A DNA stretch of 64,000 bases, taken from Candidatus Bathyarchaeota archaeon (GTDB lineage Archaea; Thermoproteota; Bathyarchaeia; 40CM-2-53-6). The notes beneath the pieces are model-generated. The model did no database searches, was not told where the DNA came from, and saw only the letters and a program-made list of their open reading frames with translations. The stretch's first letter is position 1. Every line of letters begins with the position of its first letter. The position numbers and the translations under genes were made by a program. Of this stretch, positions 216 to 29,414 are shown in pieces. The stretch lies in assembly GCA_963833125.1 (NCBI GenBank), contig CAWHWX010000001.1, forward strand, positions 96,001 to 160,000. Direction: 5' to 3'.

Positions 216-243
216 GCGTGTGTATCTCTTGGTGCGCACACAC
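216..243 (+). repeat. 28-bp dispersed repeat copy
   Basis: GCGTGTGTATC-TCTTGG-TGCGCACACAC; outer arm ATTCGAACCATAGTCGTTCGTCG upstream. Confidence 0.85.
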
Positions 244-277
244 ACTTAGAACGAAGGACCGAAATGTCCAACTTGCA

Positions 278-1015
278 GTGAACTCAAAGGTAATCCCGTG
301 TTCTTGTGTTGCCGCAATTCCGTTAATCGAGGACTTAACAACTGAGCCGATACCTCCAGGGTCGAACCTGCTCGTTGAATTTGACCCGGCCTCAGAATGG
401 TACAATGCGGCAGTTACAATCACGGCAGGATGGTTAAGTTCAGGCGGAAGGGTACACTACAACGTAAACGTTCGACCCCCAGACACTGTCCGCTCACACC
501 TGAAAAAACTCGGTTTGAATCCGGAGGATTTTGAACGAGAAGACAAGTTGAGAATATACGACTGGTACTCACTCACCCTAGGCCGCAGGTCTGTAGGTAA
601 GGATCCGGTCACCTCGCTAAAAGTGCACGAATTAAGTCCCGATTATGCCAACTGGATGCGAAGCGATGAGCTGAGCGAAAACGAGACCACGCTGAGAATG
701 ATCGAGAACGGCTCGACACTAGCCAGATACAATGATGAGAAAGCGTATGTTGAATTCATCTTGACGAGAGTATTTCCCCGCTCAACACTCTGGAAAGCGA
801 TTCTGATCAGCTCACACGTGAAGGGCTTGCACAGCGATTGGGTCAATGGGGCATTGGAATCAGCAGCCGATGGCGTAATCGATTTCAAGCTAGACGAAAC
901 TACTGACCCGGCGCAGAATCTCATTCGGATTAGGAATTTGAGGAATGTGGGCTTCGACGGAAGGTGGCACAAGCTAAAGACTTCTAAGAGTCACGAAGTC
1001 ACCTTGGTCAAGTAA
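278..1015 (+). CDS. KaiC/RAD55-like single-domain protein, Walker A degenerate (paralogue 1)
   Basis: IPPGSNLLVEFDPASEW...ADGVIDFK...IRIRNLR; similarity to the paralogues begins near 308, where a TTG start appears shifted by a 1-nt indel. Confidence 0.8.
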   Translation: MNSKVIPCSCVAAIPLIEDLTTEPIPPGSNLLVEFDPASEWYNAAVTITAGWLSSGGRVHYNVNVRPPDTVRSHLKKLGLNPEDFEREDKLRIYDWYSLTLGRRSVGKDPVTSLKVHELSPDYANWMRSDELSENETTLRMIENGSTLARYNDEKAYVEFILTRVFPRSTLWKAILISSHVKGLHSDWVNGALESAADGVIDFKLDETTDPAQNLIRIRNLRNVGFDGRWHKLKTSKSHEVTLVK

Positions 1016-1019
1016 TTTT

Positions 1020-1047
1020 GTGTGTGGGTCGGCTGGTGCGCACACAC
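1020..1047 (+). repeat. 28-bp dispersed repeat copy (consensus)
   Basis: GTGTGTGGGTC-GGCTGG-TGCGCACACAC between convergent stop codons at 1015 and 1056. Confidence 0.9.
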
Positions 1048-1055
1048 ACTTGGAC

Positions 1056-1457
1056 CTACTTTCGTTCTAACAGTTCTATCCATATGCCGTTTGGGTCTTT
1101 GACGTAGGCTTCTTTCCATCCTACGTCGAAGCCAATTTGGTATGGTTCCACGACCACTTCGATGCCTTTCCGTTTCAGTTCTTTCACGCTAGCTTCCAGA
1201 TCTTGAACGTCGAAGGCAACGTGGTCGAGGTCTTCGCCGTTAACGTAATGCGAGTTGAATGGGCTCAGGTCTTCATAATGGTTGAGTTCTAGAAGTTGCT
1301 GTGAGTTTGGGCTCTTGAGTGTAACCACACTCCCTTTTGTTGGTGTCGTCTTCTGAAGCGGCTCCACGATAACCATGCCCAAGATGCCCGTGTAGAACTT
1401 CAGAGATTCTTCCATATTTTTCACTCGTATACCGGTGTAGATGAAACGAAAATCCAA
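1056..1457 (-). CDS. VOC/glyoxalase family protein
   Basis: YTGIRVKNMEESLKFY...LDHVAFDV...YVKDPNGIWIELL. Confidence 0.9.
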   Translation of the reverse strand: MDFRFIYTGIRVKNMEESLKFYTGILGMVIVEPLQKTTPTKGSVVTLKSPNSQQLLELNHYEDLSPFNSHYVNGEDLDHVAFDVQDLEASVKELKRKGIEVVVEPYQIGFDVGWKEAYVKDPNGIWIELLERK

Positions 1458-1524
1458 ACTAATGCACCTGTCGTGATCTCTTCTTCGATGGAATGGGTCT
1501 TAAGATCATTGGGGGGTAGGTCTG

Positions 1525-1603
1525 GTGTGTGTATAATCTGGTGCGGACGCCGACAATCGGACCGGTCGTTAGTGTAGGTGTGCGCACCAAGAGATACATA
1601 CAC
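1525..1603. repeat. Inverted doublet of the 28-bp repeat (1525-1552 +, 1576-1603 -)
   Basis: GTGTGTGTATA-ATCTGG-TGCGGACGCCG and, on the minus strand, GTGTATGTATC-TCTTGG-TGCGCACACCT. Confidence 0.8.
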
Positions 1604-1633
1604 GACAAATCTAGTTACGTAGTCACAGTAGCA

Positions 1634-2542
1634 TTAGTCTGTCCGTTTCGAGTTTACTATGCGATTTATGACCTTTTTCTTAAATCCCCCACGTTTTGTG
1701 TTGTCCGGCAAGGCTTGCTCTATTATAGAGCTGTAAAATCGCATGAACTTGTAACCAAAGCACTTCTTGATGCCCGTAAGTTCACTTTTGGTTCGCATAA
1801 GTTCGATCCTAAGAGCATCTCTCTCCTTCTCCAATTCGAAGTAGAGGTCCATGAGCGCCGCGCTTCCGCCACAAAACTTTCGCCTCACCAGACGCGCATC
1901 TTCCAACACCTCAGCATATCGCTCAACAGTAATCTGATGCCTGTGAATTCTACGCCAATAGGTTACCTTAGGAATATGAAGAATATCGCAACTGGTCTTT
2001 CCAATAAGCAATGCAAGCTGCATGTCTTCCGCGTATTTTATTGACGTATCTAATCCTTCAGACTGCAAATAGAATTCTTTCCTGAAAAATAGCTCCGCTG
2101 AACCTGGCCACCATCCTGAAATTATAGCATCAACTAATGTCTTCCCGAAAGGGAGAAATTCATTCGGCCCCTTATCGCCAGTTGAATCAACCCAGTTCGT
2201 CCAAACGTAACCAAGACGAGGATTATCTTCAAATGCTGGCATTACAGCGGAAAGCGAATCAGGCATAAGCTTATCGTCACTACCTAAACATGTTATTACA
2301 GGTCCACGTGCATGCTCAATGCCCACTGCAGTAGCCGCGGAGCAACCTTCATGCTTCACCTGAACTAACGCGATTCGATCATCTGACAATTTGGACTTGA
2401 CAACTTCTACTGTTCGATCAATTGAACCGTCGTCAACAACTAAAACATCCCAATCACTATAATCCTGCGCAATCACCGAATCAATGGCGTCCCCAACGAA
2501 ACGTTCACGATCGTAAACAGGAATCAGAACGGTAACATGCAA
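1634..2542 (-). CDS. Glycosyltransferase family 2 with C-terminal coiled coil (paralogue A)
   Basis: VTVLIPVY...VVDDGS...LGSDD; TTG start chosen by alignment to the neighbouring paralogue. Confidence 0.9.
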   Translation of the reverse strand: MHVTVLIPVYDRERFVGDAIDSVIAQDYSDWDVLVVDDGSIDRTVEVVKSKLSDDRIALVQVKHEGCSAATAVGIEHARGPVITCLGSDDKLMPDSLSAVMPAFEDNPRLGYVWTNWVDSTGDKGPNEFLPFGKTLVDAIISGWWPGSAELFFRKEFYLQSEGLDTSIKYAEDMQLALLIGKTSCDILHIPKVTYWRRIHRHQITVERYAEVLEDARLVRRKFCGGSAALMDLYFELEKERDALRIELMRTKSELTGIKKCFGYKFMRFYSSIIEQALPDNTKRGGFKKKVINRIVNSKRTD

Positions 2543-2590
2543 AACATAACCACCACACCGAAAGAACTCTGCCACGTAGTTACCGTGGTT

Positions 2591-3526
2591 CTACTCTGTT
2601 CGGTACGAATCTCTTATGCAATCCTTAACCTTTCTCTTGAGCCTTCCACGTCTCGTGCCGTCCGGAAGTGCTGCGTCGATTATGGGGCCATACAGTTGCA
2701 TGAACTTGTAGCCAAGGCACTTTTTGATGTCCGTAAGTTCACTTCTGGTTCGCATAAGTTCACTCGTGATGCCCGTAAGTTCACTCCTAAGTGTTCCTAT
2801 CTCCTTCTCCAATTCGCCAAAGTAGAGGTCTGCCAGTGCGGCACTTCTTACCATAAACCTTCGCCTTATCAGATGCACTGCTTTTATCTGCTCATCGTAT
2901 GAAAGCTCATTTTGAATTCTGTGAGGATGAATTCTACGCCAGTAGGTTACCTTAGAAATATGGAGTGTGTCGCAGCCGGTCTTGGCGATCAGTAGAGCTA
3001 ATTGCAAATCCTCACCATATTGTATCGATTGGTCTAATCTTTCGGATTGCATATAGAAGCCTTTTTTGTAGAATAGCTGTGCTGAAGCGCGCCACCATCC
3101 CGAGATTAAAGCCTCAAACAATGTCTTCCCGTCAGGAAGAAAATCACTCGTACCCTTATCGCCAGTTGAATCAACCCAGTTCGTCCAAACGTAACCAAGA
3201 CGAGGATTATCTTCAAATGCTGGCATTACAGCGGAAAGCGAATCAGGCATAAGCTTATCGTCACTACCTAAATGTGTCACTACAGGTCCGCCTGCGTGCT
3301 CTATACCCATTGCAATAGCTCCCGTAACACCCGAGTGCTTCATTTGAATTAGTTGAATCCGGTCATCTGACAGCCTTGACTTGACAACTTCCACTGTTCG
3401 ATCAGTTGAACCGTCGTCAACAACTAACAGGTCCCAGTCATGATAATCCTGGCCAATCACCGAGTCAATTGCGTCCCCGATGAAATATTCACGGTTGTAA
3501 ACAGGTATTAGGACAGTAACATGCAA
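2591..3526 (-). CDS. Glycosyltransferase family 2 with C-terminal coiled coil (paralogue B)
   Basis: VTVLIPVYN...VVDDGSTD...LGSDD; long stretches identical to paralogue A. Confidence 0.9.
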   Translation of the reverse strand: MHVTVLIPVYNREYFIGDAIDSVIGQDYHDWDLLVVDDGSTDRTVEVVKSRLSDDRIQLIQMKHSGVTGAIAMGIEHAGGPVVTHLGSDDKLMPDSLSAVMPAFEDNPRLGYVWTNWVDSTGDKGTSDFLPDGKTLFEALISGWWRASAQLFYKKGFYMQSERLDQSIQYGEDLQLALLIAKTGCDTLHISKVTYWRRIHPHRIQNELSYDEQIKAVHLIRRRFMVRSAALADLYFGELEKEIGTLRSELTGITSELMRTRSELTDIKKCLGYKFMQLYGPIIDAALPDGTRRGRLKRKVKDCIRDSYRTE

Positions 3527-3677
3527 AGTGTAACCTCACACATTGATCCAAATTACATTTATGCTCTTCGGCAACATTACATAAATATTTTTTTTGGGGG
3601 GCCCGGTGGTGCACACATTTAACCACCACTGCCCAGCGTGCGCGTGTCATAAGTTGAAGCGTCGTCATCCTAAAAGT

Positions 3678-3705
3678 GTGCGTGGGTCTAGTGGTGCGCA
3701 CACAC
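3678..3705 (+). repeat. 28-bp dispersed repeat copy (degenerate partner at 3593-3620)
   Basis: GTGCGTGGGTC-TAGTGG-TGCGCACACAC. Confidence 0.85.
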
Positions 3706-3743
3706 GCACTGAGAGAGAAAAAGCGAGCTGACCATCAATCCTT

Positions 3744-4442
3744 TTGGTGAGAGAGTCAATCAGGAATGTCACAAACTTGAAGTACAGTATTGTTCTCAGC
3801 ACGACCGGAACCCGCCTCACTCTCCAAGCATCCGCAAACAATTTCGAGCACTTCACACGAACAAGAAATGATACGGAATTAATCATAGGCACGAACAACC
3901 CCACCTTAGAACAATCATGGGTCACAAAGCCACGCAACGCAAAAATCGTTTGTCGGCCCGACCATCGGGTTTGTTGGAGTGACGCAATAGATGCCTCAAG
4001 AGGTGAATTTATCGTAAACGTGGACGATGATCTCAAACTCGCCAACGACTACCTAACCCGAGCTGACCACATCTTTACGGACCCGACGCTTCAAATGATT
4101 CAACCCACCCTACTAGACGCGGAGGGCTATGTTTGTTTGCGGAAGCATTATCGAAGTTACACCATAAGCGTATTCCGTCGCAACCTCATAGAAAAGTTAG
4201 GGATGGATTATGATGGACGAGGTTCACGCTGGCCCGAAAACAACATCCCCTTTGTCGAAGCGGCGTGGGAGAAGGCTTCCGTTGTAGTCGCCATGAAGAT
4301 GTACGCGGTTCACTACGGTTACCCTACACCCCACGGAGTAGATTCAACAATTGCTCCTTACGGCAGCCGCTTAGATTTCTTGGAAGAGTGGCGTAAAGAG
4401 AACAATTACGAACGTATACCACTTGAGACAATCCTGCCATGA
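3744..4442 (+). CDS. Divergent GT-A fold (GT2-like) glycosyltransferase
   Basis: YSIVLST...AIDASRGEFIVNVDDD (DxD motif in GT2 context). Confidence 0.6.
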   Translation: MVRESIRNVTNLKYSIVLSTTGTRLTLQASANNFEHFTRTRNDTELIIGTNNPTLEQSWVTKPRNAKIVCRPDHRVCWSDAIDASRGEFIVNVDDDLKLANDYLTRADHIFTDPTLQMIQPTLLDAEGYVCLRKHYRSYTISVFRRNLIEKLGMDYDGRGSRWPENNIPFVEAAWEKASVVVAMKMYAVHYGYPTPHGVDSTIAPYGSRLDFLEEWRKENNYERIPLETILP

Positions 4443-4477
4443 AAATTCTTGTTCTAACAGTCGTTCGTCGTGAGAAA

Positions 4478-4563
4478 GTGTGTGGGTCGGCTGGTGCGGG
4501 CACAGGAATTTGAACCGTGGTTCGTTTGAATTTCTTGGGGGTGCGCAGTGATACCGCACGCAC
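4478..4563. repeat. Inverted doublet of the 28-bp repeat (4478-4505 +, degenerate ~4537-4563 -)
   Basis: GTGTGTGGGTC-GGCTGG-TGCGGGCACAG, linker GAATTTGAACCGTGGTTCG, then a minus copy with a short deletion in the spacer. Confidence 0.75.
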
Positions 4564-4608
4564 GAAAACTACAAATCTGCTGTACTAGAGGAGACCCCGG
4601 TGTTCTGA

Positions 4609-5310
4609 TTGCCGAAGATGCCGTTAGTCGAGGACTTGATTAAGGGACCGGTTCCTCCGGGTTCTAATATTCTCGTTGAATTTGATCCAGCCTCCCAGTG
4701 GCTTAACGCATCGCTAACGATTGCTGCCGGCTGGGTGAAGGATGGAGGCAGCGTTAGCTACATTGCCAACTCCCAATCCCCAGACGACATTCGTTCACAC
4801 CTTCGAAAACTGGGCCTTGCTGTTGAGGAACTCGAGAGGACCGATCGGTTATGGATTACTGATCTATACAGTGCGTCGATAGGACAGAAATCCAAAGAAA
4901 GATTCGCGGTTGAATCGTTGAAGGTCGCGGACCTTAGCATTTGGATAGGGAGAGAGGCGATGGGTGATTCACCCGCCCCCGAATTTCTCGTAATAGCGGA
5001 TAACAATTCAATTCTCGATAGATTCAACGCCGAGAGGAATTGGGTCGAATTGTACCTCACCCGACCCATTCCAATGGCAAAGCCCAGACAAATAACCCAA
5101 CTAATAGCGTTCATGAGCGGAATTCACAGTACCTGGGCGTACAAGCAGCTCGAGGCTGCCGTTGATGGTGTCATCGATTTCAAAATTGATGAGGTAAACG
5201 GAGAACGCAAGACCTTCATGGGAATTCGGAACATGCGGAATGTTCATTTCAATTCGCGATGGTACTCATTGAAGATCGGAAAAGACTTCGAAGTCGCCTT
5301 GGAAAAGTGA
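4609..5310 (+). CDS. KaiC/RAD55-like single-domain protein, Walker A degenerate (paralogue 2)
   Basis: VPPGSNILVEFDPASQW...VDGVIDFK...GIRNMR; AGAGGAG upstream. Confidence 0.85.
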   Translation: MPKMPLVEDLIKGPVPPGSNILVEFDPASQWLNASLTIAAGWVKDGGSVSYIANSQSPDDIRSHLRKLGLAVEELERTDRLWITDLYSASIGQKSKERFAVESLKVADLSIWIGREAMGDSPAPEFLVIADNNSILDRFNAERNWVELYLTRPIPMAKPRQITQLIAFMSGIHSTWAYKQLEAAVDGVIDFKIDEVNGERKTFMGIRNMRNVHFNSRWYSLKIGKDFEVALEK

Positions 5311-5333
5311 GTGCGTTTAGCAGGGCGTTCGTT

Positions 5334-5361
5334 TAGTGTGCGCACCAGCCGACCCACCGCA
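5334..5361 (-). repeat. 28-bp dispersed repeat copy
   Basis: Minus strand TGCGGTGGGTC-GGCTGG-TGCGCACACTA followed by AACGAACG; between convergent genes. Confidence 0.85.
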
Positions 5362-5407
5362 CGCAACTTTCTAACAACTCTAGGCGCAATGGGGGCGCAC
5401 TCTCAAT

Positions 5408-5779
5408 CTAGCGATTGCCCGTCATGCCATACCCACTATAGAGCATCAATACGCCCATCAACAGCATAACCGAACCCGAAAGCGTTGAACCTTGCATCAT
5501 CGAGAACACTTGCGCGAGCATAGCCACTCCTAAAACCAACATAATTAGACCGTAGAGCAACATTAGCATTCTAATCGTCGAGCGGTTCTTCATCATATGC
5601 GACGTGAGCAAATACAGGCCGGTCAACAGAACGATTAACCCCAGTGTCAGAAGGAAATAACCGCCCCACCTGGCAGTGGAAGAAACCATCATTCCCGCGG
5701 GTTGAAGAAGCACTAAGCCTGCGACTACGTCGACAAACCCTCCGATGATCCCTATCGCGGCCGAGTAGATTTGCTTCAA
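5408..5779 (-). CDS. Small four-TM membrane protein, function unknown
   Basis: Four hydrophobic Gly/Leu-rich segments in 123 aa. Confidence 0.7.
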   Translation of the reverse strand: MKQIYSAAIGIIGGFVDVVAGLVLLQPAGMMVSSTARWGGYFLLTLGLIVLLTGLYLLTSHMMKNRSTIRMLMLLYGLIMLVLGVAMLAQVFSMMQGSTLSGSVMLLMGVLMLYSGYGMTGNR

Positions 5780-5838
5780 GCCATTACCGCAACCCTATCC
5801 GAGACTCCCAGAAACCATCCATATACAAAAGCGATTTC

Positions 5839-5866
5839 TTGTGTGGGTCGAGTGGTGCGCACACAC
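5839..5866 (+). repeat. 28-bp dispersed repeat copy
   Basis: TTGTGTGGGTC-GAGTGG-TGCGCACACAC. Confidence 0.9.
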
Positions 5867-6097
5867 ACTTTACGATGGGCCACTGGCGGCGGTTCGAATT
5901 AGGACGGTTGCACGAATAGATACACACGCCTGAACAACATGTCCGATTTCTGACGGCACCAGCAGAAGTGTTATTTGCATTTGTATCCAATCGGTTTAGA
6001 CATTATTGAACATACTATGCGTTGGTATTCGATAAATCCACAATCGCTCCTAGATCCAATCCTAAATGAACTGAGGCTGTTTGAGTTGCAGATTTCC

Positions 6098-7186
6098 ATG
6101 CACAAAGTCTTCGAGGATATTTGGAAAATCTATCCTGAAAATATGCTCAAGAACCGCACCTGGCACTGGTGGTGGTGGATTTACTTTTTCGAGAACCCTG
6201 ACGCTCCCGAATTCCCGAGACAGCTAATGGTCCTTTGGGGCACTAGGAATTGCAGAAAGGTTCGCGTGAATGATTTCTACTGGGAACCGACAATCCCAAT
6301 GGAGACTGACGGCAAGCACGCTAGTTTCGAATCGATGGTGGCCTCCTGGTATTATGACGGCAAAAAAATGCACGAACCGCTCCTCATTGATCACGGGAAG
6401 ACTGAGACCGAGTGGGATGACCACTATGGAAGAATCAGGATGGAAGGGCGCAAAGGGGTTTATTCATACGGCGGAAACCGCGAAAAATTCTGGCTGAAGA
6501 TAGACACGGACAGCGTAGGAATTGAACTGTCAATGGAGAAATGGAAAGACGCAATGGCGGAACTGGTGTCAACGGGAAGGAAATTCGTTGGAAACATGGG
6601 ATATTCGATGTTGAAATACAGGGGTCTGTCCTCCTCGGGAAGGATCCGATTAGGCGACACCGAAACCCCAGTCAAGGGTAGATCGTATTTCCAGAAGGTG
6701 CGAATATCTTCACTAACTCCTTGTTGGTATTGGGGCACAGTACAATGGGACAATGGAGCCTACCTACAATACTTTTTGCCCCACATCGGGGTCCCGATGC
6801 TCAGACATTCAATATCCCATGAGAGTACCATGGACTGGGGTGAGAAGATGATTTCAAAGACACTCAACTTCTACGACCCCGAGGAAGGGAAGGAGTATTC
6901 CATGACGGACGTTAAGTTAACCAAGCACTACGAAAATGACCTCCCCGTATTCAATGTGAGCGCAACCTCCGGTCAAAGCGAGCTCAGCATAGAGATGGCA
7001 ACATACGCGAGATGTTGCTGGAACATATCACAACCTCTCATCGGACCAATTTGGTCTGGGATCTTCTACAATGAGTACCCAGCAACGGTCAGGAATTTCA
7101 AATTCAAAAACAGCAATCGAAGCGCAAACAATGATGATTTTGGCAAAAGCTACTGCAACTGCGAGCACACATGGGGGCTGGTTTAG
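6098..7186 (+). CDS. Hypothetical Trp/Tyr-rich beta protein (tocopherol-cyclase/AttH-like fold suspected)
   Basis: Long ORF with TWHWWWWIYFF, GRSYFQKV, WYWG, YNEYP and EHTWG motifs; fold is inference. Confidence 0.7.
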   Translation: MHKVFEDIWKIYPENMLKNRTWHWWWWIYFFENPDAPEFPRQLMVLWGTRNCRKVRVNDFYWEPTIPMETDGKHASFESMVASWYYDGKKMHEPLLIDHGKTETEWDDHYGRIRMEGRKGVYSYGGNREKFWLKIDTDSVGIELSMEKWKDAMAELVSTGRKFVGNMGYSMLKYRGLSSSGRIRLGDTETPVKGRSYFQKVRISSLTPCWYWGTVQWDNGAYLQYFLPHIGVPMLRHSISHESTMDWGEKMISKTLNFYDPEEGKEYSMTDVKLTKHYENDLPVFNVSATSGQSELSIEMATYARCCWNISQPLIGPIWSGIFYNEYPATVRNFKFKNSNRSANNDDFGKSYCNCEHTWGLV

Positions 7187-7213
7187 GAAAACTGTGACTA
7201 CGAGAGTTAGTCA

Positions 7214-7298
7214 TTCGACTGCTTTCTGGGTGTGCACACACACTTTTCAAACGAACGACGTTCCGATTTTGACCGGCCGCACCATTGATACCACACAC
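7214..7298. repeat. Inverted doublet of the 28-bp repeat (half-conserved 7214-7241 +, 7271-7298 -)
   Basis: TCTGGG-TGTGCACACAC, linker ACTTTTCAAACGAACGACG, minus copy GTGTGTGGTAT-CAATGG-TGCGGCCGGTC. Confidence 0.7.
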
Positions 7299-7432
7299 AA
7301 GGGATACGCGTGAAAGTCGAGCTGGTGTGTAAAGTCCGGGATTCCACTGCGCCGTGACATTAACGAAGAATCATAACATAGAAATCGTACAGACGACAAG
7401 CATAGATTTGTTTTGCCAGAGGAGACCCGCGC

Positions 7433-8158
7433 TTGGCTACCGTTATGGTTCCCCCATTCTTGAAGGAACTAGTTCCCGGTGGGTTCGAATATGGTGCCAA
7501 TCTTCTTGTTGAATTTGACTCCGACTCCGTCTGGTACGAAACGTCGCTCACAATCGCGGCTGGCGCAATAAGAGCGGGGATAAAGATTGACTACCACAAT
7601 TTCCAGCACACTCCCGATGACATCAGAAAAGCCCTCGACCGACGAGGATTAGACGTGAAGAGGCTAGAAGATGAGGACATGCTTTGGATCGTTGATAGCT
7701 ACACAGTACAGACAGGAGTTGATAGCTCTAGAGACCGGTCGGATGTTACTGAAGTCTCCGTGAAGCTTTCGGATTGGAGCATCGCTCTGGCTAAGGATCT
7801 TAAGGCAGGCATCTCTGAAGCCATGAAAAAGCGCCTGCATATTGACGATAACACTGGTATCCTGCTTCAGTACAACGAGGAGAAGTCCATCATAGACTTC
7901 TGGCGTACCCGGTATATACCCTATTCGAGAGCACGCGAATGTGTCATGGTACAAGCACTCTTGAAGGGCGTGGCTTCCTCCTCATTCTACAAGCAGTACG
8001 AATCGTTATGTGACGGAATAATTGATTTCAAGAGCGAAGAACGAGAGAACGAAATTCAACATTACGTGAGAGTCAGAAGTCTTCGCGGCAGGGAATGCGA
8101 TTCACGGTGGAGGAAGCTCCGGTTGTCGGATAACGGCGAAGTCACACTATTCGAATAG
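7433..8158 (+). CDS. KaiC/RAD55-like single-domain protein, Walker A degenerate (paralogue 3)
   Basis: LVPGGFEYGANLLVEFDSDSVW...CDGIIDFK...VRVRSLRG; AGAGGAG upstream. Confidence 0.85.
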   Translation: MATVMVPPFLKELVPGGFEYGANLLVEFDSDSVWYETSLTIAAGAIRAGIKIDYHNFQHTPDDIRKALDRRGLDVKRLEDEDMLWIVDSYTVQTGVDSSRDRSDVTEVSVKLSDWSIALAKDLKAGISEAMKKRLHIDDNTGILLQYNEEKSIIDFWRTRYIPYSRARECVMVQALLKGVASSSFYKQYESLCDGIIDFKSEERENEIQHYVRVRSLRGRECDSRWRKLRLSDNGEVTLFE

Positions 8159-8162
8159 AAAA

Positions 8163-8190
8163 GTCAGTGGGTCTCCTGGTGCGCACACAC
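8163..8190 (+). repeat. 28-bp dispersed repeat copy
   Basis: GTCAGTGGGTC-TCCTGG-TGCGCACACAC, 4 bp after the stop codon. Confidence 0.85.
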
Positions 8191-8579
8191 AGAAGTCCGG
8201 TGCCACAAAGCTCTCCCACTGAAACCTTGGTGCCCTTTGGAACTGTTTTATTTCATACCCATTTTTCTTAGGCGATGAGTGCTGCATTCGCGAATATTCA
8301 GACAAAGCCGTAGTTCAAAGCAAGGACATTCTTGCGATGTACTTGTCTTTCTATCCTTATATTGAACCAAGGCGAGAATGCACAAAGTTAGTTGTCATGA
8401 ACGAGAGGGACGAGTCATTTGCAACGATTGACCGCATGTTCTTCTTCTTGTTGCAACTGACCGAAGTCGCCGGAGTCTGAGGAAACAACCGAAATCTCGT
8501 TCCGACGGTAAGTGAAAGACGGAACCAGTCTTCGGCTTCATCTTGGACCCGCGACGTGGAAGATAAGGAGAAAAAATCG

Positions 8580-11956: not shown

Positions 11957-12053
11957 CTTTCTGCCGATATATTCTTGCCGCACTCGTCTAAGCCTCTCCC
12001 CATTGGTCCGTAGCGTCCTCTAAAATAAATTACACTGAGAGATACTTCGCTTT

Positions 12054-12081
12054 CTTGATGCGCACCAATAGACCTCGCCGG
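12054..12081 (-). repeat. 28-bp dispersed repeat copy (degenerate)
   Basis: Minus strand CCGGCGAGGTC-TATTGG-TGCGCATCAAG. Confidence 0.55.
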
Positions 12082-15875: not shown

Positions 15876-15903
15876 GGTGGGGGGTATGCTGGTGCGCACA
15901 CAC
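15876..15903 (+). repeat. 28-bp dispersed repeat copy
   Basis: GGTGGGGGGTA-TGCTGG-TGCGCACACAC. Confidence 0.7.
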
Positions 15904-16191
15904 AGCTTCTTGGGCATCCATCTTAGCCCTTTCGTGACAACATATCATAATGTGAAGCGTTCCTAGTGATACGTGGAAAGGGCGGCTTTTCGATCTTTCT
16001 TCTTCTCGCGTGCTTTCGACTCCCTCTTATCTCTAGCAGCCGTCCACGCTTTCTTAGATGCCCTACTCTGCTTTGCCATACATTAATCACCTCTCAGACA
16101 CAACATAGTACTCACACTCGAATAAGCAACTTCCGACGCTTTCGTAAAACTGGCCTTTATCTGCAACTTACCAGCTGTTCAATTACGAAGC

Positions 16192-19600: not shown

Positions 19601-19618
19601 CCTAGATCCCTTACTCCT

Positions 19619-20554
19619 TTACTGGTATTGTTTACCCGGCCTGAGGCCGCCTGTGAATTCGATGGTTTCGAAGAGTTGGTGAACTTTCTCAGGCACACCC
19701 TCTACAACATTCAACCCGATAGCGCGTGCCACATCCAACGTGATCGGTGTACTACTCGACATAAACCCGCCAACCAGGAAGTTGGCTACCTGTGTCGCTT
19801 GTTCTTCGTTCATATGATCGATCAAGAGCCATTTCACAAACTCTTTTGCATTTTCTTCCTCCATGCGTGCAGATTCGGCGAGGAGGATGGTGCGGTCGGA
19901 GATGGTTTCGATTGGTTTACGCTTCAGGATACCCATTACCAGGGTCGCTGGCATATCATCAATGAGCGGCTCTAGGGGGGCTAGGATGCTGCATTTCTCC
20001 ATCATGATCTCGTCCGCGGCCAGGACGACGTATGTGCCGTCGGACATGGCGTAGAACGGAACCATAACCGTCACCTTCGCCTGATGATACCTCAACGCCA
20101 TCGAGATCAGGTCAGCAGCAAAAGTCAGCCCGCCTTCTGTGTGTACGATGAAGTCTATCGGCTTATCCGGCGGAGTCTCTCGCACTTGTTGGAGGATTAA
20201 TTCAGAATCCTCAAACCCGATCTCGGGCTCATCATCACTCGCACTCCAAGGCTCCTTCCGGTGAATAAGGGTTAGAACCCTCGACCCACGCTCCTCCTCC
20301 AACTCATGAACCAACTGAGCCCTCCGAGAGAGTATCTCTTCTTTCGAGGGGGTCCTCTCGGTTTCACCTTCAGCCTCATCCTCGTCCTCGTCTTCATCGT
20401 CTTCCTCGTCCTCTTCATCACTCCCCTTCGTTATGGGGGTGGGTGTTTGGGGGATCTGCCAGAAACGGTGTATCACAAAGAGATTGGTCAATGAACTAAG
20501 AGAAGCCACTACCACGATCGCTATGGCAAGGAGTAGGTCCAACTCTTGCATCAT
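19619..20554 (-). CDS. SDH-family ClpP-like paralogue with degenerate catalytic motifs
   Basis: IVHTEGG, YAMSDGT, LAPLEPL, SSSTPIT; N-terminal TM and poly-D/E linker. Confidence 0.85.
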   Translation of the reverse strand: MMQELDLLLAIAIVVVASLSSLTNLFVIHRFWQIPQTPTPITKGSDEEDEEDDEDEDEDEAEGETERTPSKEEILSRRAQLVHELEEERGSRVLTLIHRKEPWSASDDEPEIGFEDSELILQQVRETPPDKPIDFIVHTEGGLTFAADLISMALRYHQAKVTVMVPFYAMSDGTYVVLAADEIMMEKCSILAPLEPLIDDMPATLVMGILKRKPIETISDRTILLAESARMEEENAKEFVKWLLIDHMNEEQATQVANFLVGGFMSSSTPITLDVARAIGLNVVEGVPEKVHQLFETIEFTGGLRPGKQYQ

Positions 20555-20650: not shown

Positions 20651-20729
20651 ACGACTATTCAGTGTGGTGCACACGCACAGAATCCGGGAGGGGTCAAATT
20701 TGAGTGCTCGCACCATCAGACCAACACAC
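20651..20729. repeat. Inverted doublet of the 28-bp repeat (half-conserved 20651-20678 +, 20702-20729 -)
   Basis: GTGTGG-TGCACACGCAC and minus-strand GTGTGTTGGTC-TGATGG-TGCGAGCACTC. Confidence 0.75.
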
Positions 20730-20789
20730 CCTGAAAAAACCGAAAACCAAAACTCCCAGTCTAATAGATGATTATTGTGTGTTCCCCTC

Positions 20790-21491
20790 GTGCCGAGGAT
20801 CCCGTTAATCGAGAACCTAACCACCGCTCCCATACCACCTGGCACGAATATTCTTGTAGAGTTTGATGCTGCTTCGCAGTGGTACAATGCGTGCGTAACA
20901 ATTCTGGCAGGCTGGGTCAAGACAGGCGGAAGCACCTCCTACCTTTTGTCTGCTAGACCTCCGGAGAGCATCCGCTCACAACTTCGCCGTTTTGGGTTAG
21001 ATCCGGGAGAACTCGAGAGTAAGGGCAGGCTTCAGATATGGGACTTTTACTCTGCCACTCTCGGCCAGAGGTCCCAAGAAAAGTACGGCTTCGATTCACT
21101 GAAAGTCGCCGACCTAAGCATAATTATCTCAAGAGGGCAAATGCATCGACAGCCCTCACCGGACCACATGTACATCACCGAAAACACTTCCGTCCTCACC
21201 AGATTCAACGACGAGAAAAGTACGGTCGAATACCTTTTGACAAGAGCGCTTCCGACAGCAACCATAACTAAATCCACTAGCGTCCGCGGCATCATCACGG
21301 GTGTTCACAGTGACTCGGTTTACAGGCAACTTGAGGCGGCCGCGGACGGTGTTGTTGATCTTAAAGTCGAAGAGGTGGAAGGCGAGGTAAAGAATCTCAT
21401 TCGCATCCGAAAAATGCTTAACGCCACGTTTGACGCGCGCTGGCATCCGCTAAAGGTCGACCAAAACTTCGAAGTCACGTTAGATACGTAG
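20790..21491 (+). CDS. KaiC/RAD55-like single-domain protein, Walker A degenerate (paralogue 4)
   Basis: IPPGTNILVEFDAASQW...ADGVVDLK...IRIRKML. Confidence 0.85.
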   Translation: MPRIPLIENLTTAPIPPGTNILVEFDAASQWYNACVTILAGWVKTGGSTSYLLSARPPESIRSQLRRFGLDPGELESKGRLQIWDFYSATLGQRSQEKYGFDSLKVADLSIIISRGQMHRQPSPDHMYITENTSVLTRFNDEKSTVEYLLTRALPTATITKSTSVRGIITGVHSDSVYRQLEAAADGVVDLKVEEVEGEVKNLIRIRKMLNATFDARWHPLKVDQNFEVTLDT

Positions 21492-21508
21492 ACGCTAACT
21501 CGTTTTTG

Positions 21509-21536
21509 GTGTGTGCCCAACATTGATCCCACACAC
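21509..21536 (-). repeat. 28-bp dispersed repeat copy
   Basis: Minus strand GTGTGTGGGAT-CAATGT-TGGGCACACAC. Confidence 0.75.
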
Positions 21537-23401: not shown

Positions 23402-23470
23402 GATCGATCGAACCATAAGCCTGTACGTGCAGGTTGGGCAACGTAATTTGAACCATCGTCGTCCGTAAAA

Positions 23471-23498
23471 GTGTGCGCGCACCATTAGACCCACACAT
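23471..23498 (-). repeat. 28-bp dispersed repeat copy with full outer arm
   Basis: Minus strand ATGTGTGGGTC-TAATGG-TGCGCGCACAC; preceded on + by AATTTGAACCATCGTCGTCCGTAAAA. Confidence 0.9.
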
Positions 23499-25887: not shown

Positions 25888-25915
25888 TCGTGTGAGTCTA
25901 TGGGTGCGCACACAC
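25888..25915 (+). repeat. 28-bp dispersed repeat copy
   Basis: TCGTGTGAGTC-TATGGG-TGCGCACACAC followed by ACCAACCGAACGACG. Confidence 0.8.
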
Positions 25916-26164
25916 ACCAACCGAACGACGTTGGAAACGAAAGGTTGACTGATAGATTCGTTCCGCACTTCGGATTCTTCTCTTCACTAATTCGAAGGCT
26001 AGTATCATCAGAAGGACGAGTACTACTAAGCCGAGAGGATACTCAGGGATGGGTGGACTGTTCTTAGTATTAAGTACCAAACCCGCTTCAGCCCAATCCA
26101 CTACAATTCCTCCGAGCGTTGCAGAGACAGTAGTTGGCGAGGAGACGCACGAGCGGGGATTCAT
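25898..26164 (-). pseudogene. Fragment: C-terminal sorting/anchor segment of a surface protein
   Basis: PIPEYP + hydrophobic helix + KRRIR (PEF-CTERM-like) without an N-terminal body. Confidence 0.45.
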
Positions 26165-26664
26165 TTACAGGGAGATACGTTTTGGAACGTTATGGAATAG
26201 GAAAACGGGCGAGTGGGATTATAGACGGGTTGAAGTTTTCAAGGCGACGCCTTGGACGCAGCGTGAAAGACAACGCATATGGGGCTTCTTCAAAGCACAC
26301 AGACCCAAACAAAACTTAGGAATCTTCGTAATCCACGAAAACAAGCTCTACATGTATCCTGTGGAAAAGCACAGCGGTCAGAAAGGCACATGCATTGGCT
26401 GACCTTGATTAGAAATGCCGCGGAATTCAATCAATCTAAGATGAAAATGAAACGATTGCAGCAAAAGAGTTATTTTCCTAGCTCCGACTATAGAGGAAAG
26501 TGGGAAAGCTTGCCGTCTGACTTGTATATTTCACCTCATTCTGAGCAAAGGATAGACGCGTCGCTGTCAAAGGCTCTGTGTGCTCAAGCGGAACGAACAA
26601 ATCTCCATTGCGCCACTCGCCCGCACCAATTTGCGGCGACGAAATCTAAGATTGGAGATTAGTA

Positions 26665-27138
26665 TTGAGCAGCGTTTTGAATCAGGTTCACAAGTTCGAT
26701 GCGGATGCTTCTGGGTTACGTTACGGCTTGCTCGAAATAGAGCCGAAAGAAGAAATACATGTAAAGAGAAAATTTGGAATGAAATTCATTGAGCGAACAA
26801 TGACATTCGAACCATCTGCCAATTATCAAGACTTCGTAGCGTTCAACACGGCGGCAACAATCGATAACATGTCGCTTCCTAGCAACATCAAGGCTGAAGA
26901 CCTTGCCACTCGAATCTCAAACAAACGCATTGAGTTGATTGAGTCTGACGCGGAATTCAAGAAAATGCTTGAATTTGCAGACCGAATCAAGAGCACTTCA
27001 CAAGGACCGCGATATTTACCGAAGTTCATACAATTCTTCTTGGACAGACAAAGAAATGCTGTGAATAACCTCATCGAAGCGTACCGCGAGACTGCTACTA
27101 GAAGACAACAGGAACTTACCGCTGCAAATATTCACTGA
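26665..27138 (+). CDS. Hypothetical protein
   Basis: 157-aa ORF, first of three co-oriented genes in an AT-richer segment. Confidence 0.55.
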   Translation: MSSVLNQVHKFDADASGLRYGLLEIEPKEEIHVKRKFGMKFIERTMTFEPSANYQDFVAFNTAATIDNMSLPSNIKAEDLATRISNKRIELIESDAEFKKMLEFADRIKSTSQGPRYLPKFIQFFLDRQRNAVNNLIEAYRETATRRQQELTAANIH

Positions 27139-27154
27139 CCTTACTGATTTCGAA

Positions 27155-27562
27155 GTGACCTATGGTGCGACACTTGAGGTAATCCTATCATTGGTCCGAA
27201 AGTTCGCGGCACTAATGGCTACTGGAAGAGCCAAATCTAGCTCAGATATATTCAAGAGACGTTTTGATGAGATGAAATTCAAATTATCTCCGCTGATTGA
27301 AGAAGTCGAAAGTGCCCTCATACGCGCCCAAACCCTGAAGTGGTACATGATTCTGTCCGATAGTGCAGACGATGTTGAGAAATCATTACAATTCACTCTG
27401 GACAAAGATGAGTTGAATAGACTACACTGGGAATTCAAAGAGGAGGCAACGCATCTGAGAAAGACGATTATGCGTCTTGATAGTGACGCCTTCAAATCTC
27501 TCGTGCCTGACAGCGAACTCAAATCCAATTTCGACGAGATGGCGATGTCCGTAATTGGCTGA
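27155..27562 (+). CDS. Hypothetical helical protein
   Basis: 135-aa ORF ending 7 bp before the PIN-like gene. Confidence 0.55.
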   Translation: MTYGATLEVILSLVRKFAALMATGRAKSSSDIFKRRFDEMKFKLSPLIEEVESALIRAQTLKWYMILSDSADDVEKSLQFTLDKDELNRLHWEFKEEATHLRKTIMRLDSDAFKSLVPDSELKSNFDEMAMSVIG

Positions 27563-27569
27563 TTGACGT

Positions 27570-28328
27570 TTGTCTCTTCCGCCAAGGCCGATACTCTTCT
27601 TAGATTCATCAATTGTGATGTCCCATGTACTGAATCAGAATCAAACAATAATGACCAAATTCACGAAGGACATACCCAAGTATCACTTGAATTGCGCTGT
27701 GTCCAGCAGCGTGAAATCCGAGACCGTCTACAAAGTAAATCAATTGATTCAGTTTCTTGATAAGGCACTAATTGTCACGATCAAGAACACAATGGCAAAA
27801 CAACGAAAGTTGGATAAAAGGAAGGATTCTGAACCCATTGGCATACGTGATTTTCTGGCCGTGGAAGCGGCGTTCTACCATTTCTATCTTTACGGAGCTG
27901 GTATTGCAGATCTGAAAGCGATTGAGACCTTTGTCGTATGCTATCTTGAGAACAAACTCTCTTCTAATCCCCCAATTACACCTCAAACCGCTTTTATAGA
28001 AATGGTAGCATGGGTTCTCAAGAGAATTTCTGATATTCGCACTGCTCTTGACAAAGCAATCTTACTGAAACAAGAATTAGCTAAAGAGTACACGATTACG
28101 CCAAACCAAGCTGATGTAATCATGCTTGAGGGATTTGGCTTGGATAAGAGAGACGCTGAGCACATAGCTAGTGCCAAACAAGCACAACGGGGCGGAATAT
28201 GCAGCAAGGCTATTTTCGTCACGCTTGATTATACGACAATTATAACATATCAAACAAGGATTTTCAATGAGCCTCAACTAGCAATATGGTGCACAGATCC
28301 TCTCTATTGTGCATACCACACCTTCTAG
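27570..28328 (+). CDS. PIN-domain-like nuclease with large insertion
   Basis: ILFLDSSIV (N-terminal Asp), V.SE, DKRDAEHIASA, IFVTLD. Confidence 0.65.
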   Translation: MSLPPRPILFLDSSIVMSHVLNQNQTIMTKFTKDIPKYHLNCAVSSSVKSETVYKVNQLIQFLDKALIVTIKNTMAKQRKLDKRKDSEPIGIRDFLAVEAAFYHFYLYGAGIADLKAIETFVVCYLENKLSSNPPITPQTAFIEMVAWVLKRISDIRTALDKAILLKQELAKEYTITPNQADVIMLEGFGLDKRDAEHIASAKQAQRGGICSKAIFVTLDYTTIITYQTRIFNEPQLAIWCTDPLYCAYHTF

Positions 28329-28684
28329 CGTGGACCAGTTTTCTACTCGACGCTTAGCTCCTTCAACCGACTTTTTGAAGGTAAAGCTATCAATCGTCAA
28401 ATTCACGTTACCCATCGCTTGGGATTTTTCCCGCTTAGTATATCCATAGTTTCATATTCTTCAGTGCGGCGTTTTCTAAGGTTCCTCGCCGCTTCCGCGT
28501 ATACTTTCACTGTTGTGTAGCCTTCGCGTGCTTCAATTCTCATAACTTATAATCTATCGACTTGTCGTTTTCACTTCATTTCCATTCATTTTCCGTTTCA
28601 CAGAGACTTACGTTCCGTAGAGAGTGCGATTCGCCGACGTTACGCCAACATACCCTCATCGTGCACAACGTATTTACGGCGGCG

Positions 28685-28712
28685 GGGGCGGCGCACCATT
28701 AATACCACGCAC
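28685..28712 (-). repeat. 28-bp dispersed repeat copy
   Basis: Minus strand GTGCGTGGTAT-TAATGG-TGCGCCGCCCC; outer arm ACTTTTACCGACGACGG on +. Confidence 0.75.
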
Positions 28713-28799
28713 ACTTTTACCGACGACGGACGGACGACGACAAAGTTGAATATCTTATCATAAGAGTTAGGATCCTGCGTGTCTGCAGAAGTAATGAAC

Positions 28800-29288
28800 A
28801 TGATACAAAAAATAACTCCATTTCTATGGTTCGATGGCCAGGCCGAAGAAGCAGCGATATTTTACGTTTCCATTTTCAAGAATTCAAAAATTCTGAATGT
28901 TTCCCGCTACACCGAGGTGGGAAATGAAGTCCATGGGCGAGAGCCTGGGTCAGTTATGATTGTGGAGTTCCAGTTGGAGGGACAAAGGTTCATCGCACTC
29001 AATGGTGGGCCGCAGTTCAAGTTCACCGAGGCCGTATCGTTCTCCGTGGACTGTAAGACCCAAGAGGAAGTTGACCGTTTCTGGAAGAAGCTCTCTGAAG
29101 GCGGAGAGGAAGGGCCGTGCGGCTGGTTGAAAGATAAATACGGATTGTCGTGGCAGATCAATCCCACCATCTTAGGCGAATTATTGGGGGACAAGGACGC
29201 CGAGAAAGCGGGAAGAGTTATGGACGCAATGCTCAAGATGAAAAAGATCGACATCGCGGCGCTGAGAAAGGCGTACAAGGGACGATAG
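28800..29288 (+). CDS. VOC family protein (PhnB/3-demethylubiquinone-9 3-methyltransferase-like)
   Basis: [17 protein letters not shown]...ALNGGP.F.F.EAVSF...[14 protein letters not shown]. Confidence 0.92.
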
Positions 29289-29386
29289 TATAAGAGCGAA
29301 GTAACCCAACATCAGGAGGTCCGTCGAAGGAGGGTCCCTCGACAGGTCCCTCCCCCCCGGTTTACCAGGGTGTTCGTTTAGTGTGC

Positions 29387-29414
29387 GTGTGCGCGCACCA
29401 TTAGTACCCCACAC
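29387..29414 (-). repeat. Last 28-bp repeat copy of the array
   Basis: Minus strand GTGTGGGGTAC-TAATGG-TGCGCGCACAC, enclosed by GTTTAGTGTG...CACACTAAAC. Confidence 0.85.

Follow-up and report, generated by a model that had tools for sequence, protein, structure and literature searches.

The first 29 kb of the window (the whole 64,000-nt stretch of archaeal DNA that was analyzed) raise the question of what the 28-bp motif is that occupies most of its intergenic gaps, and of how the unrelated accessory genes between its copies came to lie side by side. An earlier note, made from the sequence alone, had proposed an undescribed recombination site at which gene modules are captured and shuffled. 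We consider it likely, with a probability of about 80%, that the motif is the junction of casposons and that the region (positions 216 to 29414) is an insertion island of casposase-less elements. Casposons are Cas1-dependent transposons that target the 3' ends of tRNA genes. As the motif corresponds to their joint of terminal inverted repeat (TIR) terminus, target-site duplication of 14 bp (TSD), and TIR terminus, the site would not be an undescribed one.

All 18 primary copies were present where they had been placed, with the leftmost coordinates of minus-strand copies lying 2 nt below the earlier values. On a position weight matrix trained on these same 18 copies, whose scores are circular for them, 17 reached 23.5 to 42.9 bits and the copy at 12052 (previously 12054) reached 16.6 bits. 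Four of the six degenerate copies proposed earlier were recovered as weak matches (3593, 10.8 bits; 7214, 9.4 bits; 10441/10451, 8.1 bits; 25109, 6.9 bits), while those at 4537 and 20651 stayed under 6 bits and are recognizable by eye only. Across the whole genome (3.07 Mb), 111 matches scored at least 12 bits and 79 at least 18 bits, whereas a randomized version of the largest contig (519,621 nt), generated with a first-order Markov model and scanned on both strands, yielded three matches, each below 14 bits, which rules out chance. Likewise, the reversed strict 21-mer pattern had no match in any of 41 genomes, or in any of the 59 genomes of a further search. The roughly 80 copies in this genome are concentrated in a few islands. 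Their intergenic location was confirmed, as 5 of 84 matches of at least 16 bits lay wholly within an open reading frame (ORF) of at least 150 aa, compared with 3,436 of 5,000 random positions. Convergent, divergent, and tandem gaps all contain copies.

The motif is tripartite, with a linker of 14 nt between GTGTGTG and CACACAC. The previous description of two 11-nt arms around a 6-bp spacer holds for the outer 7 nt, which are inverted repeats, but not for the rest of the arms, and the variable 6 nt form the center of the 14-nt unit. Exact GTGTGTG...CACACAC pairs no more than 60 nt apart occur 22 times in the genome, with a spacer of 14 or 16 nt in 17 of them. The most conserved block is TGGTGCG, and the reverse complement of the linker reads 5'-CGCACCA followed by 7 variable nt. 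A tRNA gene with an encoded CCA ends in these 7 nt, CGCACCA, and the "long" motif copies run on into ...ATTTGAACC, which corresponds to a T-loop in reverse complement. Short runs with a period of 49 to 70 nt also exist, in which the unit is the linker plus the tRNA-like stretch (three copies 52 nt apart in genome L014).

The motif tail directly follows real tRNA genes ending ...CGGCCGCACCA, both in this genome (C16:463652-463744 and contigs C6, C18, and C29) and in a genome from another family (L026). In one genome of 36% G+C content, 16 of 17 copies have one and the same 21-mer, which matches the tail of that genome's own tRNA gene. Judged by the TSD and its overlap with a tRNA, as set out in portions of PMC4779613 and PMC6977970, the CGCACCA start of the linker reverse complement and the tRNA-like stretch of the long copies agree with family 2 casposons. 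In the best explanation, the elements would target an intron-containing tRNA gene, which has the acceptor GCGGCCG and an encoded CCA, at its 3' end. GTGTGTG would represent the last bases of one element's TIR, the linker the 14-bp TSD, and CACACAC the start of the next element's TIR. Decayed copies of the last ~30 to 40 nt of this tRNA, seen as the long motif copies, could provide further targets that elements carry with them as landing pads.

Real Cas1 elements in congeners have the same parts at their ends and in their flanks. In related genomes, Cas1 genes are located in the islands that contain the motif. A 16.3-kb Cas1 element in congener G014 (C1:1330252-1346549) has ends that are alike over ~140 bp and start with (CA)n. 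It is flanked by identical direct 14-mers, GGTCTAATGGTGCG, the right one of which adjoins a tRNA-like stretch. Its Cas1 (407 aa) matched the Methanosarcina mazei casposase (PDB 6OPM) over residues 4 to 402, C-terminal HTH included (E = 3.9e-74). An 8.6-kb Cas1 element in G013 (contig C3) also has identical direct 14-mers, GGTATAGTGGTGCG, as flanks, and a KaiC-like module of one gene in G019 is bounded by two GTGTGTG-CGCACCATTGATCC-CACACAC joints that are identical and in direct orientation. Junction copies were detected on both sides of four of nine Cas1 loci, on one side of three, and nowhere within ~10 kb of two; at one examined Cas1 element, the 21-mers were inverted, not direct. Three annotated Cas1 elements carry defense-type cargo. 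No PolB domain was detected among the subset of ORFs submitted from these three elements, and the PF00136 and PF03175 matches in G014 are on contigs other than those of its Cas1 elements. Without PolB, these three elements are not full casposons by the usual definition.

The recombinase had been predicted to be encoded outside the window, and a PF01867 profile search of this genome (88% complete), window included, indeed gave no match. The rest of the genome also lacks a casposase, save for a 46-aa remnant of its C terminus at C1:351565-351702, in a second island (57% identity, E = 2e-7). Cas1 was likewise absent from six motif-rich congeners (G007, G011, G016, G018, G019, and G021) and from G034. 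As there is no casposase gene in this genome nor in these seven further motif-rich genomes, the array may be a fossil. At the genus level, motif and Cas1 agree. Among 59 genomes of the family, the strict motif was present in 20/22 genomes of g1, 10/10 of g15, 2/22 of g2 (as single copies), 0/3 of g3, and 0/1 of g14, and Cas1 was present in 12/22, 4/10, 0/22, 0/3, and 0/1, respectively.

In the window, the leftmost copy (216..245, +; 37.2 bits) reads GCGTGTG, linker TATCTCTTGGTGCG, and CACACAC and lies upstream of KaiC-like gene 1 (300..1015, +), which has a Pfam KaiC match and no Walker A motif. This copy has its linker in common with 1574- (24 nt, 96% complementary). The next copy (1020..1049, +; 42.9 bits), at which metagenome contigs stop or diverge, separates KaiC-like gene 1 from a convergent glyoxalase gene; its linker, GGTCGGCTGGTGCG, recurs unchanged in 4478+, in direct orientation, and in 5332-. 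In the composite at 1525..1603, the linker of long copy 1525+ (24.7 bits) is followed by a decayed tRNA-like stretch and faces short copy 1574- (30.6 bits). The copy at 3678..3707 (+; 39.6 bits), in a divergent gap, forms the right end of a two-gene GT2 module (1583-3698) with 89% identity to G016:C1:1330400-1332516, and this alignment ends inside motif copies. Long copy 4478+ (35.3 bits), with the linker, the ...ATTTGAACC stretch, and the degenerate inverted copy near 4537, spans 4478..4560.

Further Pfam KaiC matches were obtained for genes at 4609-5310, 7433-8158, and 20775-21491. Copies follow KaiC-like gene 2 (5332..5361, -; 28.7 bits), occupy a divergent gap (5839..5868, +; 40.3 bits), form a long copy with a degenerate one at 7214 (7269..7298, -; 24.7 and 9.4 bits), and separate KaiC-like gene 3 from a DEAD-box helicase module (8163..8192, +; 36.6 bits). 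KaiC-like gene 4 has a long copy upstream (20700..20729, -; 33.7 bits) and another copy after it (21507..21536, -; 29.3 bits). KaiC-like genes are the commonest cargo, with 19 loci in the genome; a junction lies no more than 70 nt from one end in 12 of these and on both sides in 6. A weak copy (12052..12081, -; 16.6 bits) ends a beta-helix surface-protein module (10457-12062) with 90% identity to G016:C2:519176-520792, which is bounded on both sides by the motif there. The remaining copies mark the left end of a small ultra-conserved module at 15882-16185 (15876..15905, +; 30.8 bits), a convergent gap (23469..23498, -; 34.7 bits), and an isolated site outside the island and the range described earlier (55897..55926, -; 31.3 bits). 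The segment between 25888+ and 28683- (25888..28712) probably represents what is left of a casposon of a second type, without its casposase. Copy 28683- ends TGGTGCG-CCGCCCCCGCCGCC, as do both ends of a Cas1/HNH/TIR-domain element on G014:C3, and ORF 26049-26402 resembles a gene within that element (81% nucleotide identity over 224 nt, 66% amino acid identity over 85 aa).

Comparison with related genomes revealed a between-species mosaic, in which window modules recur singly elsewhere, at 89 to 96% identity and with other neighbors, and the motif marks joints between independently distributed modules. A one-gene module encoding a 3-demethylubiquinone-9 3-methyltransferase-like fold (28683..29414, between 28683- and 29385-) is 96% identical over 699 nt to a module on G016:C2, where it occupies another locus in reverse, with different neighbors and with the linker of one side inverted. 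The helicase module (8202-9883) occurs at 92 to 95% identity in G013, G021, G018, and G003; it is 95% identical to that of G013, the core of which is only 71% identical, versus 91% for G016 (core, 76 to 87%). Synteny breaks occur at the motif, as had been expected of a shuffled array, while the adjacent core region (34001-54000) is collinear over at least 20 kb, with ~71% identity to most congeners and 76 to 89% to G016 and G019. At motif positions, contigs from four metagenomes stop or diverge, and several different neighbors are found there. Island indels without the motif exist as well (e.g., 17042/18636).

A tRNA 3' end is also where archaeal integrases usually insert, and according to part of PMC6563490 the att sites of thaumarchaea are short. 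The copies could thus be decayed attL and attR sites of tyrosine-integrase elements that integrated repeatedly at a tRNA 3' end, with the modules as their remains. The long copies do resemble a tRNA gene over its final ~40 nt, and this genome encodes archaeal-type integrases, one of them beside a tRNA gene (C28:109575-110435). However, neither G018 (98% complete, 5 contigs, 27 copies by a looser pattern) nor G034 (96% complete, 17 copies) gave a PF00589 match, and the window island has no integrase inside or adjoining it. Integration scars should be direct repeats, but the orientation of 110 adjacent pairs was near random (58 direct, 52 inverted). Transposition better accounts for a fixed 14-nt unit between inverted 7-nt flanks and for the Cas1 elements, whose TIRs are long and whose direct duplications measure 14 bp, and we regard the attachment-site explanation as very unlikely. 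Quite unlikely, too, is a host element (two-way terminator or protein-binding site) among whose copies homologous recombination shuffles genes, the nearness of Cas1 being due to variable islands. The AAAAGT...ACTTTT around the 7-bp inverted repeat resembles a two-way terminator, terminus conservation extends over just ~9 nt, few adjacent pairs have a linker in common, and many motif-rich genomes lack Cas1. Nevertheless, the motif is also found in divergent promoter gaps (3678, 5839, 15876, and 20700) and clusters in few islands rather than tracking genes genome-wide. Such an element would also leave aside that real Cas1 elements have the 14-nt unit as their TSD and the heptamers as their TIR tips, that motif and Cas1 coincide by genus, and that the 21-mer in the 36% G+C genome matches its own tRNA gene tail.

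Inverted pairs ~50 to 70 nt apart resemble REPIN doublets, and inverted sites with the same center flank modules in a pdif-like manner (216+/1574- and 4478+/5332-). A REP/REPIN-like or MITE family with an HUH or DDE transposase as its mover is nonetheless hardly credible, and so is a Xer site of the dif kind as in Acinetobacter pdif modules, as a search of this genome for the Y1 transposase PF01797 gave no match, PF00589 was not found in G018 or G034, and the inverted repeat is limited to the outer 7 nt of the 11-nt "arms." REP/REPIN sequences with a RAYT were rejected as well given the clustering of copies in islands. The earlier suggestion of a XerA-like or HUH enzyme is thus not supported, while Cas1 casposase occurs in 12 of the 22 genomes of the genus.

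Under the casposon explanation, the island would be a tandem and nested array of ~20 elements of 0.05 to 5 kb, each with 0 to 4 ordinary accessory genes, that may retain just (CA)n termini of ~9 nt and the 14-bp linker. Module termini in the window are indeed conserved over ~9 nt (CACACACAC) at each end, which is much shorter than known TIRs. We infer that a family-2-like Cas1 casposase moves the modules in trans, or did so until recently. A module would be excised as a circle, the joint of which is the 28-bp motif, and the circle would re-insert at another 14-bp site; by this route the array would behave as a cassette system. The cassette logic proposed earlier therefore appears largely right, although the system belongs to a known kind, the casposons. 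In M. mazei, mini-casposons (TIR and TSD around marker genes) were mobilized in vivo, and an element took its own TSD to a new site as the reverse complement, according to sections of PMC10359463; parts of the published M. mazei work also describe one site left behind upon excision. Identical direct 14-mers are predicted by simple tandem insertion, but 7 of 110 adjacent junction pairs have identical 14-mers (4 direct, 3 inverted; 2.1% for random pairs), so that TSD carrying and flipping of orientation as reported for M. mazei, or later TIR-TIR recombination, would be needed.

More tentatively, and with considerable doubt, the array could represent a natural, integron-like gene-cassette system driven by Cas1, and a living stage between casposons and CRISPR. 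Gene-sized pieces with only (CA)n as ends would be excised and re-inserted at 14-bp sites that they carry themselves, by a casposase often supplied by another element or cell, and arrays of 28-bp part-palindromic repeats with captured DNA between them would result. If so, single accessory genes move across species via Cas1, and the array is a living example of the long-postulated intermediate between casposon and CRISPR array.

Among known systems, family 2 casposons (M. mazei, Aciduliprofundum boonei) are alike in the 14-bp TSD starting 5'-CGCA, its variable center, the tRNA 3'-end target, and the full-length casposase with an HTH tail, as found in G014. For M. mazei, part of PMC4779613 describes a 14-bp TSD that overlaps the tRNA 3' end, its 5'-CGCA being invariant and its six central nt variable, and part of PMC6977970 describes a casposase that requires 30 bp of the tRNA in addition to the TSD. 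In contrast to the one or two elements per genome of that family, tens of junctions (~80) are present here, in a Nitrososphaerales-like archaeon. Most units are 0.05 to 5 kb long, with ordinary accessory genes and without casposase or PolB; their termini are conserved over ~9 nt, and linkers occur in both orientations. A casposase inside the element is found in the congener elements but not in the window modules. Laboratory mini-casposons similarly place nonautonomous cargo between casposon ends and TSDs; they are engineered, whereas the modules here are natural, numerous, arrayed, and known from sequence. No dense array of casposase-less cargo modules was found in print, and it is this form, in which the modules are small and densely arrayed, that remains new.

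Integron arrays and Acinetobacter pdif modules also have a short site between small, unrelated accessory-gene modules that recur elsewhere, and the proposed circular intermediate would likewise hold one site copy. Unlike in those systems, there is no IntI/Xer and no attC/dif architecture here, genes have mixed orientation and their own upstream regions, and the enzyme family is Cas1. The core of attC is GTTRRRY, which by inspection is missing from the motif, and no PF00589 was found in or near the window island or in G018 or G034. A Xer/dif site was also rejected, as the inverted part of the arms is confined to their outer 7 nt, and the motif matches neither attC nor pdif, as the earlier note had stated. 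In Tn7-type islands, repeated site-specific insertion likewise piles up whole and decayed elements (a comparison drawn in part of PMC4779613), but by another enzyme; here, the target is multiplied and carried within elements, which accounts for islands at several loci. A CRISPR array, in which direct repeats follow at a regular period with spacers of ~26 to 72 bp, was rejected on account of spacing from 50 nt to 5 kb and both orientations. CRISPR arrays nevertheless resemble the island in their Cas1-family integrase and in a part-palindromic repeat of ~28 bp that is duplicated with each insertion beside leader-like sequence, whereas inserts here are gene-sized and unequal and the repeats lie in both orientations.

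An earlier note on this DNA had read the region as a cassette array split by recombination sites of an undescribed kind, and had proposed a genome-wide scan for its 28-bp motif (GTGTGTG, a 14-nt linker and CACACAC) and a comparison of module order between relatives. All 18 motif copies that it listed were confirmed in the window. With a weight matrix built from these copies, 79 sites of at least 18 bits, grouped in few islands, were found in the studied genome (metagenome assembled, 3.07 Mb, 39 contigs, 88% complete, 7% contaminated), of which the window covers C1:96001-160000, while a Markov control gave essentially zero. Seventeen sites lie in the window at 216-29414 and 14 at C1:321-353 kb of the same contig; the remainder are on contigs C14, C16 and C28 and on small contigs, which are strain variants of larger contigs. 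Placement is intergenic, as had been claimed: only 5 of 84 sites (at least 16 bits) fall within long ORFs (at least 150 aa), compared with 69% of random positions. The motif is genuine, and its occurrence is not random. Convergent, divergent and tandem gaps all contain sites, which excludes a simple promoter or terminator role. An isolated strong copy (55897-55926) lies inside an otherwise collinear core part, and an intron-containing tRNA gene (59792-59930) is located 4 kb beyond it.

When window positions 1-20000 were compared by BLAST with the remaining 22 genomes of the genus, matches were module sized and ended at motif copies. These included a GT2 pair module (1583-3698), a DEAD-box helicase module (8202-9883), a beta-helix protein module (10457-12062), a 300-nt module (15882-16185) and the KaiC-like genes; further along, a methyltransferase-fold gene (28691-29389) is 96% identical in G016, one of the compared genomes. 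Elsewhere in the genus the window modules are separate or differently ordered, and the 14-mer that adjoins a given module end can point either way. The control region (34001-54000), in contrast, is collinear over at least 20 kb in G016, G019, G014, G018 and G013, with an identity of approximately 71% to most genomes and 76 to 89% to the closest two. The breaks in module order fall at motif copies, as the earlier note had anticipated. In G016 and G019 the island adjoins the same core block as in the window. For the helicase module, identity is 95% to G013 and 91% to G016, which departs from the ranking of core identities and suggests that modules have been transferred between species.

Assembled contigs from four metagenomes stop or change neighbours at motif positions. 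As the short side of these joints measures 22 to 32 nt, approximately the motif length, they demonstrate altered neighbours and not excision. Some indels in the island are without a motif. The assembly itself holds strain- or species-level variants at 92 to 96% identity (C6, C29, C39 and C11 versus C18, C32 and C16), in which one side of each module-sized replacement coincides with a junction copy, and its contig ends tend to fall at the motif. On C29, an insertion of approximately 1.7 kb with a duplication of approximately 33 nt is present at the 5' end of a tRNA gene. Directly past the helicase module, the window carries a tandem repeat (9936-10252; two units of approximately 158 nt, 74% alike), in place of which other genomes have a hairpin and a junction copy.

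The genome has 22 exact GTGTGTG/CACACAC pairs, of which 17 have a spacer of 14 or 16 nt, and no heptamer joints lacking the linker were found. The 14-mer follows the pattern GG(G/T)-variable-TGGTGCG, and its reverse complement begins with CGCACCA. In approximately half of all copies, termed "long," CACACAC is replaced by ...ATTTGAACC..., the reverse complement of a tRNA T-loop. The tRNA genes of the studied genome are intron rich and encode CCA, and those ending in ...CGGCCGCACCA are directly followed by 7 nt and CACACAC; a genome with 36% G+C from a different family shows the same arrangement. The motif therefore consists of the final 7 nt of a tRNA gene and the 7 nt that follow it, enclosed by two inverted heptamers. 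The anticodon arm of the tRNA genes ending in ...CGGCCGCACCA reads UCC (Gly) by eye, and ARAGORN assigns Ala to one copy.

Long copies were also considered as functional tRNA halves or minihelices, but by eye their T-stem and acceptor are unpaired. ARAGORN reported no tRNA in the window and none at the long copies of G034 (a compared genome from another family), and in the window the tRNA at 59792-59930 was the sole Rfam match at the gathering threshold. Genome-wide tRNA counts were 7 with ARAGORN at default settings and 22 with the Rfam tRNA model at E values up to 0.01 (18 above its cut-off); some tRNA introns are at non-canonical positions. Long copies additionally occur in runs of two or three with a period of 49 to 70 nt (L014 18914-19047 in G019, G000 C1:321642-321778 and G013:C39:263-356), the unit being the 14-mer plus the tRNA-like stretch. 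These runs look like repeated insertion of a mini-element of approximately 40 nt that recreates its target.

The most common cargo is a KaiC/RecA-fold family of approximately 235 aa without a Walker A motif. It is encoded at 19 loci in the genome, 4 of them in the window (300-1015, 4609-5310, 7433-8158 and 20775-21491) and 15 elsewhere; a junction lies within 70 nt of one end in 12 of the 19 and on both sides in 6. These genes were rejected as the mobility factor, being unlinked to the motif in G034. The core of the 300-nt module, a stretch of approximately 185 nt (15956-16139), is 91 to 95% identical at at least 12 places across congeners with a core identity of approximately 71%. It has multiple copies in some genomes, always near junction copies, and no Pfam or Rfam match. 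Its minus strand, read by eye, has at approximately 16030-16146 a 38-codon ORF for a very basic peptide, with a GAGGTGAT-like sequence upstream.

Which enzyme acts on these sites was addressed through the candidates. The earlier note had suggested looking for a XerA-like or other recombinase or an HUH transposase. Tyrosine recombinases do not track the motif: PF00589 had no match in the motif-rich genomes G018 (98% complete) and G034 (96% complete). No Y1 transposase was found in the studied genome. A cluster of six tyrosine-recombinase genes in 13 kb, with arginine-rich proteins, is located at a contig end (C16:556-13451); it is bacterial-looking and could represent contamination or foreign DNA. 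Cas1, on the other hand, does track the motif across 59 family genomes surveyed with a strict 21-mer. By genus, the 21-mer and Cas1 were detected in 20 and 12 of 22 genomes (g1), 10 and 4 of 10 (g15), 2 (single copies) and 0 of 22 (g2), 0 and 0 of 3 (g3) and 0 and 0 of 1 (g14). Cas1 genes within motif islands encode 404 to 412 aa, and one casposase-bearing genome has 11 Cas1 matches.

In the studied genome no Cas1 gene was found, the sole remnant being a 46-aa casposase fragment in the second island, and searches of seven further motif-rich genomes, including G034, found no Cas1. The enzyme for such genomes may reside on unbinned DNA. In G034 (36% G+C), 16 of 17 copies carry one identical 21-mer, equal to the end of a tRNA gene of that genome, which points to a recent spread of the motif there. 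The same genome (L026-L039) has a pilin-like gene (by eye) flanked by two copies spaced 730 nt apart, with a tRNA gene upstream, and a TPP riboswitch (L031 6891-7001, 59.9 bits) near a junction copy. An AmoA search gave no match in the studied genome or in any control and is thus uninformative.

Congeners carry Cas1 within elements of their own. The clearest case (G014:C1:1330252-1346549, 16.3 kb) has ends alike over approximately 140 bp that start with (CA)n and is flanked by identical direct 14-mers, GGTCTAATGGTGCG, the right-hand one abutting a tRNA-like stretch. The Cas1 of this element matches the M. mazei casposase (PDB 6OPM) from end to end, with E = 3.9e-74. An 8.6-kb element on G013:C3 also has identical direct 14-mers. 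The element on G014:C3 (L050 8058-17142) encodes Cas1, an HNH nuclease and a TIR-domain protein and ends in inverted 21-mers followed by CCGCCCCCGCCGCC; no target-site duplications were seen outside its heptamers. The same ending is found at window position 28683, and window ORF 26049-26402 matches a gene within this element. Around five further Cas1 loci, an inverted-repeat search found no motif-type terminal inverted repeats (TIRs) at L055, L056 and L058, and two of nine Cas1 loci have no junction copies nearby. Among the ORFs of the three annotated Cas1 elements that were submitted to Pfam, no PolB was found, and the Cas1-bearing elements appear to be casposons without PolB. Their cargo (G014:C1, L053/L054; G014:C3; G013:C3, L051/L052) is of defence type: AIPR, TIR-domain protein, HNH nuclease, DndB-like protein and DNA methylase.

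Overall, the motif is best read as a casposon end/target junction, and the region as an island whose cargo modules derive from casposons but lack the casposase. The cassette logic proposed earlier largely holds, but casposons, to which the system is assigned, are already known and not an undescribed kind. Should casposases move the modules in trans, archaea of soil, sediment and peat would have in the Cas1 integrases a means of exchanging genes one at a time. The 21-mer also offers a simple way to locate casposon islands in metagenome-assembled genomes, from whose bins the casposase is often missing. In a full-text literature search, no account was found of arrays whose cargo modules lack a casposase, nor of this array form, copy number or PolB-less relatives; TIR and target-site duplication (TSD) supplementary tables (PMC6563490, PMC4779613), a possible source of related sites, lie outside that search.

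In PMC9939771, casposons are portrayed as usually rare, large and present approximately once per genome, their main interest being that the CRISPR adaptation machinery probably descends from them. Here, two genera of one family, as well as a single genome from a second family, carry the casposon end-and-target signature in tens of copies per genome, and it frames single ordinary genes that are nearly identical in species with approximately 71% core likeness. If the modules are indeed mobilised in trans, the arrays would be a natural test system for how repeated insertion beside a leader-like sequence could have led to the first CRISPR arrays. Adjacent junction pairs share a 14-mer in 7 of 110 cases (4 direct, 3 inverted; random pairs, 2.1%), pairs are direct in 58 and inverted in 52, and module termini are conserved over approximately 9 nt only. 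This mixed picture could be explained by travelling, flipping linkers, by nested insertion into landing pads of either orientation, or by recombination between termini. Engineered mini-casposons are reported to be mobile in vivo, their excision leaving a single site, and a circular intermediate has been proposed (PMC10359463); the joint of such a circle would read TIR end-TSD-TIR start and so correspond to the 28-bp motif. As described in PMC4779613, the TSD of M. mazei family-2 casposons is 14 bp and overlaps the 3' end of a tRNA-Leu gene; its 5'-CGCA is invariant, while six positions at its centre vary. Tandem copies have one TSD in common, and solo TIRs exist. According to PMC6977970, the M. 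mazei casposase requires 30 bp of the tRNA gene in addition to the TSD, and the long copies observed here fit this complete target.
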